A stretch of DNA of 64,000 nt, from the NCBI GenBank assembly GCA_964016885.1, contig OZ024749.1, forward strand, positions 55,366,001-55,430,000, given 5' to 3'. The DNA is from Eledone cirrhosa. Lineage: Eukaryota. This document shows, in pieces, positions 8,729 to 60,025 of this stretch (the first letter of the stretch is position 1; each line of letters begins with the position of its first letter). The position numbers and the translations under genes were made by a program. The notes below the pieces were generated by a model, which saw nothing but the letters and a program-made list of their open reading frames with translations, made no database searches and had not been told where the DNA came from.

Positions 8729-10034
8729 AATTATATTTACATATATTAATGGCATAAAGGTATGACTGTAGGCTCAGTGGTTTCAGCATGCAACCTCCCC
8801 AAGTTTCATCAGAGATATTTCCTGAAGAAGCCTGCAGAGGTCACAAGCTGAACTTACAGAGCTTGTGGTCAAACCTTTACTACATTAATATATCCACTCT
8901 GTATTTCATCATGCATTGAGTACTATTACAATTTGTAGTCTTTCTGGTTTTTGCACCACAGACACTCTGTATATATTTATATATATATATTCATTTACTA
9001 TGACTAAATAGCGAGTCCTGTTAGACAGGAGTTTCACCAGCACACTCACAGGATCATCAGCCAAGACTGTATTGTCTGATCATCCTGTATGTAGGCAGGT
9101 GAAACTCCAGAGTAAAAGACGCACTACTTAGCAATAATAAAATGAATATTAAACTCTACTTTGGTAAGGTGTACTCTTTTCTCTCATCCATCAACTACAT
9201 ATACGGATATATAAATATATGTATATATACATACACATTTATATATAGGTGTGTATGAAGCACACACAAACATACATTCATGGCTGCATGCCCGTTTCAA
9301 GATAAAAAAAAGGGGGTTACAAGAAGCTGTAGCAATGCATAGAAACTGTGAGCAATGTATGTTTTATAAAGGCCAAGTTGCCAAGCTAGGAGTAGTAGTA
9401 GTAGTAGCAGTAGTAATGGTAGCAGTAGTAGTAATAGTAGTTGTAGTAGCACGTGTGGGAACAAAAAATACTTTTGGTATAAGTGTGTGTGTGTGAATAT
9501 GTGTGAGCATGTGTGTATGAGTGTGTTTTGTTCTTTTTTTTTTAAAGTTTTATTTTGAATATGCACTTGCCAAAAGCTGTAACACCACTCCTACTACTAC
9601 CACTACTACTATTACTACTATTACTACTACTACAACCACAGCTGCAAACACTGAAACCAGCACTGTTATCATCACCAGCATCATCACACCACCAATACCA
9701 TCACCATCACCAGTAACAGTACCACCACCACCACCACCACCACCACAACCATGTCTGCTCCAACATAACCACCACGAGAACCACCACCACCACCACCACC
9801 ACTGCTGTGACATGTGATTTGCCCACCATTGCCGATGGCTGGCTGGCAATGACATGGTGAGCCCGTCTCTCTGTCTCTGTGCCTGATTTGCCTTGTCTGT
9901 CTGTCTGCCTGCCTGTGTGCCTGTCTGCCTGTTTGACTGCCTGTCTGTCTGCCTGCCTCATGACTGGGTACTGCTAGGCTGATGTAGGCCACCGGGTCCA
10001 TCCGTTTGGACTATGAGCCAGCTGGGCAGATGTG

Positions 10035-24957: not shown

Positions 24958-25099
24958 ATGTTACTGGTAAGTATGGTTGTTGAAGTTGCATTGCAAGTGC
25001 CTGCTGGTAGGTCACGTTGCCAGGTTGATAGACTGGGACACCACTTTTACTGTCTGCCACAGCTACACGTTTGGCGTATGGTGCACCGGTAAGACCACC
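24958..25099 (-). CDS. mbl: muscleblind C-terminal exon GGLTGAPYAKRVAVADSKSGVPVYQPGNVTYQQALAMQLQQPYLPVT (142 nt, phase 0/1)
   Basis: Acceptor TTTCCTCTTGTTGGCACTAG|GGT; donor ACAT|GTAAGT. Similar to invertebrate Mbl KR..A.KSG.PVYQP and vertebrate YQQALANMQLQQ. Confidence 0.93.
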
Positions 25100-32265: not shown

Positions 32266-32467
32266 TATATATACAAATATATATGTGTGTGTTGAAACGT
32301 AAAAGGAAACTCTAGACTGCTAAGTAAAGCATATTGAAGGCTAGTTTTCATTATTATTATTATTATTTGTCATGTGACTGTGCAAGTAATTGTATTTTTT
32401 ATATAATATATATAAAAAAAAAAGAAGCAGACTACAGCAACATGCAAAGCATGATGGGATATAGTAC

Positions 32468-32536
32468 CAGAGTAACGAGATCGTCTGCAGGGTCACGAGG
32501 TCGCTTCTTGCCCGTCAAGACCTCAACCACTTGCGG
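32468..32536 (-). CDS. mbl: muscleblind 69-nt cassette exon with NLS (PQVVEVLTGKKRPRDPADDLVTL), equivalent of vertebrate MBNL1 exon 5
   Basis: TAATTAG|CCG...CTG|GTACTA; 23 codons, no stop, phase 0/0 compatible with both neighbours; KKRP basic motif; lies between the ZnF3/4 exon and the KR..YQQAL exon; YGCY-rich flanks. Confidence 0.88.
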
Positions 32537-32735
32537 CTAATTAGTATGCAGAGCACATGATGGCAGTTTGGCCAATGAAATGGCAGCATGGCAGGGATGG
32601 CAGCACATGACAACAGCAAGCAGCAAGGCATGATGGGTGATGAAAATAAAAGAAAAGCACCATTGGTAAAAACGTTTCAACCAACATGCATGAAAAAAAA
32701 AAATAAATAAAAACCATTATTTTTATACCAGAAAG
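32537..32735 (-). promoter_or_regulatory. intronic splicing-regulatory element upstream of the NLS exon: YGCY cluster in an AG-exclusion zone
   Basis: 12 YGCY motifs counted in 32541-32660; no AG on the sense strand for about 200 nt before the acceptor; UGCAUG at 32685-32690; U-rich tracts are distal rather than next to the 3' splice site. Confidence 0.8.
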
Positions 32736-40869: not shown

Positions 40870-41425
40870 GCTGCTACTGCTGTTGTTATTGAGCCATGGA
40901 TCAGTCTCTCACGCTGCTACTGCTGTTGTTATTGAGCCATGGATCAGTCTCTCACGCTGCTACTGCTGTTGTTATTGAGCCAGGGATCAGTCTCTCACGC
41001 TGCCACTGCTGTTGTTATTGAGCCATGGATCAGTCTCACGCTGCTACTGCTGTTGTTATTGAGCCATGGATCAGTCTCTCACGCTGCTACTGCTGTTGTT
41101 ATTGAGCCATGGATCAGTCTCTCACGCTGCTACTGCTGTTGTTATTGAGCCATGGATCAGTCTCTCACGCTGCTACTGCTGTTGTTATTGAGCCATGGAT
41201 CAGTCTCTCACGCTGCTACTGCTGTTGTTATTGAGCCATGGATCAGTCTCTCACGCTGCTACTGCTGTTGTTATTGAGCCATGGATCAGTCTCTCACGCT
41301 GCTACTGCTGTTGTTATTGAGCCATGGATCAGTCTCTCACGCTGCTACTGCTGTTGTTATTGAGCCAGGGATCAGTCTCTCACGCTGCTACTACTGTTGT
41401 TATTGAGCCAGGGATTAGTCTCTCA
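40870..41425. repeat. minisatellite, 43-bp unit, about 13 copies
   Basis: GCTGCTACTGCTGTTGTTATTGAGCCATGGATCAGTCTCTCAC in tandem. Confidence 0.95.
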
Positions 41426-45659: not shown

Positions 45660-45982
45660 TGCAACCCCAACTAGAAATCAGTGCAAGCAGAGGTAGTAGT
45701 AGTAGTAATAATAATAATAGTAATAATAATAGATCAAAACATACACATAGTGAGAACAAGGTGCGATGTGGGGGAGGGGAGAGAAACGGGCAGAGCAGCA
45801 GCATTGCAATAGCTGGACAGCAAACGTTAACACGGATGTATGAAAACAAAAGTTGTGTGATGGCGGTAAAGGGTGGACGGGTGGGCGGGGAGCATGAGCA
45901 GGCAACAGGACAGAAAAGCGATGAAAAGAAATTTTTTTAAAATTTTAATTTTTGCACGATTGTCAAGCAGTGTCCGCCCTAC
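45660..45982 (-). promoter_or_regulatory. YGCY-rich intronic island just downstream of the ZnF3/4 exon
   Basis: About 13 YGCY motifs in about 300 nt of locally GC-rich unique sequence. Confidence 0.55.
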
Positions 45983-46225
45983 CAGAGCTCGAGTCGGTGC
46001 AGCAGCAGCTGCAGCCCGTTGTTGCACGGCTTTAATCTGCGCCTGCAGGTGAAGTGGAGGGTGAAAATATTTGCACGAGTCCCGTGTACACTTTCCCTTC
46101 ATGTAATCCATACATACTGTTACCGTGTTGTCGGAAGGGTCAACTGTTACATTTTCAGGTGGGTGTGCATAGCGACAGTCATTAGGCTGTCGCGTGCAAG
46201 TACATCTTTGAAATTCACGACATAC
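45983..46225 (-). CDS. mbl: muscleblind-like exon encoding the tandem CCCH zinc-finger pair ZnF3/ZnF4 plus Ala-rich linker (243 nt, phase 0/0)
   Basis: Translates [22 protein letters not shown]...[50 protein letters not shown], matching MBNL ZnF3/4 (VCRE..QR..C.R...DCR.AHP; [28 protein letters not shown]). Acceptor TTTCTTTCCGTCTCTTTCAG|GTA; donor CTG|GTAGGG. Confidence 0.97.

Positions 46226-55614: not shown

Positions 55615-60025
<4,411 letters not shown>

Follow-up and report, generated by a model that had tools for sequence, protein, structure and literature searches.

Autoregulation of MBNL1 has been demonstrated in mammals (PMC7901844, PMC5082313), where the protein represses its own 54-nt exon, which completes a nuclear localization signal (NLS), and binds a 90-nt YGCY region that follows a branch point at -141 and precedes the acceptor (PMC7901844). 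The silencer in intron 4 is a 212-nt ultraconserved element (PMC7901844, PMC5082313), and its central YGCY motif mattered most in a human minigene (PMC5082313). In Caenorhabditis elegans, MBL-1 represses the equivalent exon, the isoforms localise differently, and FOX-1 acts as a co-regulator (PMC10773944). An exon with the KR motif has been reported across bilaterian phyla except for Ambulacraria, with conservation limited to the KR motif, and the exon, its alternative use across these phyla and the feedback are already known (PMC10773944). Thus, the initial annotation of the sequence studied here overstated the novelty of a bilaterian-age feedback switch; the mechanism is known, and what is surprising is the depth of letter conservation.

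We analyzed a 64,000-nt stretch of the Eledone cirrhosa genome (the window; G000:C9:55366001-55430000), whose features are collected in Table 1. Among solved structures, the best matches of the ZnF3/4 exon include Muscleblind-like protein 1 (E 2e-31), and the closest protein among the matches listed is from Octopus sinensis (93%). The same contig carries the earlier coding exons further upstream, and the end of the linker exon, at C9:55431306, is 1.3 kb beyond the window. The ZnF3/4 exon and the muscleblind exon after it are separated by a cassette exon that is flanked by AG and GT and encodes PQVVEVLTGKKRPRDPADDLVTL in frame 0, with stops in the other two frames. It had been annotated as a 69-nt frame-preserving exon encoding KKRP, which the open frame and the splicing of both ends in a relative confirm. 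Pig MBNL1 (P0072) contains the exon-5 peptide at the equivalent place. Position, phase, KR motif, and alternative use support the assigned homology of the cassette to MBNL1 exon 5 within a muscleblind gene and make the Eledone exon a genuine addition to the MBNL exon-5 family.

Table 1. Features of the muscleblind locus in the window (positions counted from its first letter; offsets with a minus sign are relative to the cassette acceptor and those with a plus sign to its donor)
Feature	Positions	Strand	Remarks
ZnF3/4 exon	45983..46225	minus	243 nt, phase 0, skipped in some transcripts
Second YGCY cluster	45783..45982	minus	12 YGCY in 200 nt; adjoins ZnF3/4 exon downstream; predicted inclusion enhancer
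Predicted distal branch region	32642..32691	minus	candidate adenosines -155, -141, -131; TGCATG at -154
Predicted intronic silencer	32537..32661	minus	12 YGCY and 11 YCAY in 125 nt; no AG
12-nt run	32612..32623	minus	-87..-76; part of mouse oligo as5 (15/20 oligo letters match)
5-nt run	32574-32570	minus	common with human primer; ahead of 15-nt run
15-nt run	32551..32565	minus	-29..-15; part of mouse oligo as7; YGCY, two YCAY, YGCY
7-nt run at acceptor	32538..32544	minus	common to mouse oligo as8 (11/14 intron letters match, one gap)
Cassette exon	32468..32536	minus	69 nt, phase 0; KKRP, first KR half of likely bipartite NLS
10-nt run at donor	32461..32470	minus	3 exon and 7 intron letters; identical to mouse oligo as10
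Downstream element	32429..32457	minus	two YCAY, 3 YGCY, TGCATG at +22
Next exon	24958..25099	minus	142 nt; second KR motif (KRVA)

Several further features of the gene were observed. Two short minus-strand exons, 24319-24272 and 15494-15444, encode a nearly identical peptide (SSTKLNE...PYFT) and apparently represent a tandem exon duplication, which is also seen in other cephalopod proteins. A CAGG/CAGA-type repeat is located at 9870-9960 (minus strand) after the stop of an alternative last exon, with an N gap just upstream; on the opposite strand it reads CCTG/TCTG, a repeat of an MBNL-binding type. The intron upstream of the ZnF3/4 exon contains a 4.4-kb, almost pure AT microsatellite array (55617-60025). 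In addition, many invertebrate Muscleblind isoforms (P0001, P0006-P0014, P0033, P0035, and others) contain further C-terminal CCCH fingers beyond ZnF1-4.

At the protein level, the motif KR-x-R-[DE]-x-x-[DE][DE] was detected in 36 of 120 homologues among the matches listed, the carriers being bivalves, gastropods, a scorpion, insects, a crustacean, amphioxus, hemichordates, and echinoderms, whereas divergent versions in flies, mosquitoes, and vertebrates are missed by this pattern. Isoform partners lacking the motif exist, and pairs with and without the exon were found within one species or genus for oyster, scallop, abalone, amphioxus, a hemichordate, and dipterans. Hemichordate and echinoderm Muscleblind proteins (P0019, P0024, P0023, P0034, and P0054) carry the cassette peptide, and have KK in place of KR as their next-exon motif, which may explain the exception made for Ambulacraria in PMC10773944.

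Read evidence for splicing came from four of the 24 listed runs, among which one was informative, namely RNA run X22; it derives from a relative (organism G) and not from the organism of the window, as 21/21 reads differ at position 32492. Its depth is about 20 over the cassette exon and near zero beside it. The predicted junction between the cassette end (32468) and the next exon (25099) is crossed by 20 X22 reads of this relative, and another 20 join the linker exon to 32536; the letters from which these reads enter are exactly those that close the linker exon, so the ZnF3/4 exon is skipped in them. The other predicted junction (45983>32536) was absent among the listed reads of the relative, in which at most about 2 of the approximately 22 reads at the cassette acceptor could come from ZnF3/4. 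With regard to other runs, contigs of run X1 gave no piece on the locus (a zero that can be false) and run X21 gave two intron reads. Positions 32427-32677 are also spanned by a contig of another organism (organism F; depth 3.4), which differs by a single substitution in the exon and a 1-nt gap. The letter missing from this contig, at 32565-32566, could give the human 3-nt spacing before the 15-nt run or may be an error of a single contig at that depth.

Although the exon had been called hidden, it is present in annotated proteins of relatives (P0161, P0149, and P0142). Among 26 cephalopod-like proteins, a search-biased and non-independent set, the cassette is present in 11 and absent in 15, and ZnF3/4 is likewise missing in 15; 10 records contain ZnF3/4 only (all models of one species), 10 the cassette only, five neither, and one both (P0149, a predicted gene model with an odd N-terminus). 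It is the protein records that provide evidence for cassette skipping, whereas the X22 reads show inclusion; in cephalopods the cassette is thus either included or skipped, and when included it places KKRP beside the second KR motif of the next exon. In other molluscs, both exons occur together in 11/15 Mytilus, 9/9 oyster, 12/15 Dreissena, and 6/10 abalone records among those listed, and the linker is joined to the cassette in 10 of 11 further matches. A pattern that may miss divergent forms did not detect the cassette peptide in the 18 records from two snails. One might suspect an artefact, either a pseudo-exon that is never spliced or an assembly contaminated with vertebrate DNA, considering that the RNA reads come from relatives and that the X1 contigs yielded nothing on the locus. 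However, reads splice both exon ends, which together with the cephalopod proteins carrying the exon largely refutes this explanation; moreover, the peptide is mollusc-like and not vertebrate-like, and the locus is colinear among the other exons of the gene on a 56.8-Mb contig. We consider such an artefact hardly credible.

The intron upstream of the cassette is unusual in several respects. The 12 YGCY motifs reported ahead of the exon were recovered at -123..-19, and such a number within 125 nt before an acceptor is unique among 2620 minus-strand AGs; the four other AGs with 10-11 upstream YGCY sit inside the same exon, and all remaining AGs have at most seven. The AG-free zone of about 200 nt was also confirmed (the nearest upstream AG is at -201; gaps of at least 199 nt represent 15 of 2624 on the minus strand). 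The YGCY cluster sits between the predicted branch region and the acceptor, with a U-rich tract at approximately -121..-106. The claim that a proximal pyrimidine tract is lacking is only moderately distinctive, as the pyrimidine fraction at -30..-4 is 0.63, compared with 0.67, 0.81, and 0.85 for three further acceptors in this gene (two of them read one base off). Downstream, the donor letters CTG/GTACTAT were found as annotated and are non-consensus, and the three YGCY and the UGCAUG past the donor are located at +17..+39 and +22, respectively.

The cluster adjoining the ZnF3/4 exon is the second-densest sense-strand YGCY cluster of the window, and outside it and the cassette element no GT is followed by more than 10 YGCY within 200 nt. 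Two plus-strand YGCY clusters, at 41121 (a 43-nt tandem repeat) and 9857 (a CAGG/CAGA-type repeat), were rejected as controls of another kind. A search of the Eledone genome with the element returned one match, the window itself, although such a search does not prove rarity. The only Rfam match had 21 bits against a gathering threshold of 50 and lay outside the element. The predicted fold of the element was not better than those of shuffled sequences (z -1.11; 28 of 200 shuffles fold equally well); a minimum-energy fold in which the 12-nt block pairs with the acceptor and the beginning of the exon was dropped for this reason.

For comparison with mammals, we used the letters of 17 antisense oligos that tile intron 4, exon 5, and intron 5 of mouse Mbnl1 (PMC7901844) and of four mutagenesis primers on the human silencer (PMC5082313). 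Their reverse complements were compared with the Eledone sequence by eye, as 20-mers with unseen gaps. All runs common to mouse and Eledone (Table 1) are colinear, lie on both sides of the same exon, and have the same orientation; 8 of 9 letters at 32450-32442 (+18..+26) also match oligo as11, and the shared donor is the one used by the 20 X22 reads of the relative. A match of 9/11 letters to oligo as4 at 32638-32628 was not counted because it overlaps the as5 alignment. The 7-nt run at the acceptor appears to hold a branch-point-like ACTAAT, which would be too close to the AG for normal use. The human intron and donor letters given in the initial annotation were borne out wherever the mouse oligos cover them, and its claim of nucleotide-level likeness stands for the intron and donor as a chain of short blocks but fails in the middle of the silencer. 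By eye, oligo as6, which contains the central YGCY that was most important in human minigenes, has no counterpart in the Eledone element, and the spacer between the two long runs (46 nt here vs 32 nt in human) does not align. A metagenome scan for the intron of other animals yielded four loci, all unrelated and none followed by the exon. The motif was not found in the available text of PMC2853123 or in four of the five supplements of PMC5082313, and matched synthetic constructs only in the supplement of PMC6158504.

Simulated pairs of 125-nt sequences with the composition of the element were searched for two exact runs in colinear order, one no shorter than 12 nt and the other no shorter than 15 nt; in these nulls the Eledone composition stands in for mouse, the thresholds were set after the match had been seen, and donor-side runs were left out. 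Such pairs arose in 9 of 361,122 simulations when 12 YGCY were placed at random, in 1 of 177,634 under a Markov 1 model, and in 162 of 147,699 under Markov 2. When both YGCY and YCAY units were kept, they arose in 138/461,880 and 27/350,187 simulations, of which 16 and 5, respectively, were in register. A Markov 3 model trained on the element gave 8,144/124,919 (6.5%), a result that shows the sequence to be of low complexity; this model reuses the same letters for both partners and thus overstates convergence. Since an early 9+9 null based on human primers alone was weak (1.9-16% across three nulls; 0.4-1.9% in a gapped test), the claim rests on the unmutated mouse oligos. From the match by eye and these proxy nulls, the likeness between the vertebrate and protostome introns appears to go beyond chance.

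It is conceivable that the exon is homologous and the likeness of the introns convergent, with pyrimidine-rich clusters of the same YGCY and YCAY words coming to share runs. The low complexity of this motif-built sequence, the 6.5% obtained with Markov 3, the spacer that cannot be aligned, and a comparison made between Eledone and mammals only are in line with such a scenario. However, the motif-aware nulls gave frequencies of 3e-4 or less (<4e-5 in register), the other YGCY cluster of the same gene has at most 8 nt in common with the element, and the shared donor letters and the 7-nt acceptor run hold neither YGCY nor YCAY. Convergence is therefore quite improbable, and common descent of the intron letters is, judging from the sequences compared, very probable.

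Our main reading, to which we assign a probability of roughly 0.8, is that the exon occupies the place and phase of MBNL1 exon 5, that the flanking intron likely derives from an ancestral silencer, and that Muscleblind would bind it, promote skipping, and shift the protein from nucleus to cytoplasm. Because the mammalian layout recurs in Eledone, with branch candidates and a TGCATG at the offsets given in Table 1, the same feedback may be expected by analogy. As suggested by mammals and C. elegans, the weak donor, long AG-free zone, and distal branch point would make the exon marginal, MBNL on the upstream YGCY would block it, and inclusion would complete a bipartite NLS.

The inherited element might instead have kept its oldest letters for another factor (of Nova type at YCAY, of QKI/SF1 type at the acceptor site, or Rbfox) or for a local structure, in which case MBNL feedback would be minor in cephalopods. 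Nova binds YCAY, and QKI/SF1 binds ACUAAY. None of 20,000 shuffles with the YGCY letters fixed reached the 11 YCAY of the 125-nt element (mean 2.75), and an 8-mer containing two YCAY occurs three times around the cassette exon, out of five copies on the whole minus strand of the window. The YCAY count is nevertheless less exceptional, as 42 of 2620 AGs have at least 11 upstream, and no signal in the window is stronger than the 12 YGCY. With human minigenes in HEK293 cells, neither deletion nor mutation of the first YGCY in the 15-nt run altered the MBNL dose response, and the motif that mattered most is the unshared central one (PMC5082313); since this run opens with a dispensable YGCY and holds two YCAY of the 11 in the element, a second reader such as Nova is plausible. 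FOX-1 co-regulates the worm exon (PMC10773944), whereas repression of a human exon 5 minigene is seen with all distant Muscleblind homologues (PMC5041496). Both readings could hold together, and we regard a minor role of MBNL as unlikely. Within the main reading, YCAY pairs and TGCATG could perhaps allow Nova-type and Rbfox-type proteins to tune the switch, a weaker suggestion than the feedback itself.

A simple model holds that MBNL binding downstream of an exon generally enhances its inclusion (PMC3315501). With a YGCY cluster directly past the ZnF3/4 exon, the two exons are predicted to respond in opposite ways: the same rise in MBNL that blocks the cassette would promote the ZnF3/4 exon, for which we see about even odds. 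Low MBNL would then yield a nuclear two-finger protein and high MBNL a more cytoplasmic four-finger protein. This prediction seems to fit the X22 reads and the cephalopod tally, and less so the bivalve models; coupling of ZnF3/4 and cassette, which draws on one run and on search-biased, non-independent protein sets while many bivalve and abalone models carry both exons, could equally hold or fail. More tentatively still, the locus may represent a composite RNA switch with letters kept since the mollusc-mammal ancestor, in which the oldest part, the YGCY-YCAY-YCAY-YGCY block together with the acceptor and donor letters, is read by a Nova/QKI-like factor, and the cephalopod feedback flips two exons in opposite directions (nuclear two-finger, cytoplasmic four-finger); we consider this full version rather doubtful.

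No report of vertebrate-protostome intron letters at this exon was found among the literature matches listed, with subscription papers outside their scope and figures S3/S8 of PMC10773944 possibly bearing on novelty. The intron element can probably be added to the few bilaterian conserved non-coding elements on record. Vertebrate-protostome non-coding matches are rare, one survey reporting 25 segments, one of them intronic (PMC10735318), and a splicing silencer among them would be unusual. It would also be the footprint of a disease-relevant element, as studies of myotonic dystrophy routinely use MBNL1 exon 5 to report MBNL activity (PMC5082313). Such ultraconserved elements tolerate minigene deletions, and the Eledone copy marks about 45 lasting letters and points to candidate second factors. 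Coupling of the two exons, if real, would mean that the feedback alters both protein location and RNA-binding valency.

Compared with known systems, the element resembles the 25 bilaterian conserved non-coding segments in being a short vertebrate-protostome match at the same place beside a homologous gene, but unlike them it adjoins a cassette exon that is coding and would function at the RNA level; MBNL and muscleblind are not mentioned in the main text of that survey (PMC10735318). In Drosophila mbl, the second finger pair is likewise a single exon and one- or two-pair isoforms exist, whereas neither coupling to an NLS exon nor a YGCY cluster at the second-pair exon is described in the available text (PMC3315501). 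Exon 7 of C. elegans mbl-1 is similarly an alternative exon with the first KR motif and a GCAUG site nearby; it adds 75 aa, unlike the 69-nt cassette, and it is repressed by its own protein, which for Eledone is predicted. The worm intron alignment covers five Caenorhabditis species only, with no cross-phylum intron match described in the available text (PMC10773944); in contrast to the conservation given there, we find the peptide in proteins of hemichordates and echinoderms, and the shared motif reaches as far as R-[DE]-x-x-[DE][DE]. With respect to mammalian MBNL1 exon 5, Eledone differs in exon size (69 vs 54 nt), acceptor (TAG vs AAG), a longer and unalignable silencer middle with five YGCY in place of a single key motif, the downstream TGCATG, and frequent skipping of the ZnF3/4 exon (in relatives). 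The two nevertheless share the place after the ZnF3/4 exon, a preserved frame, the first KR motif, a YGCY cluster before the acceptor, identical donor letters, and colinear runs.
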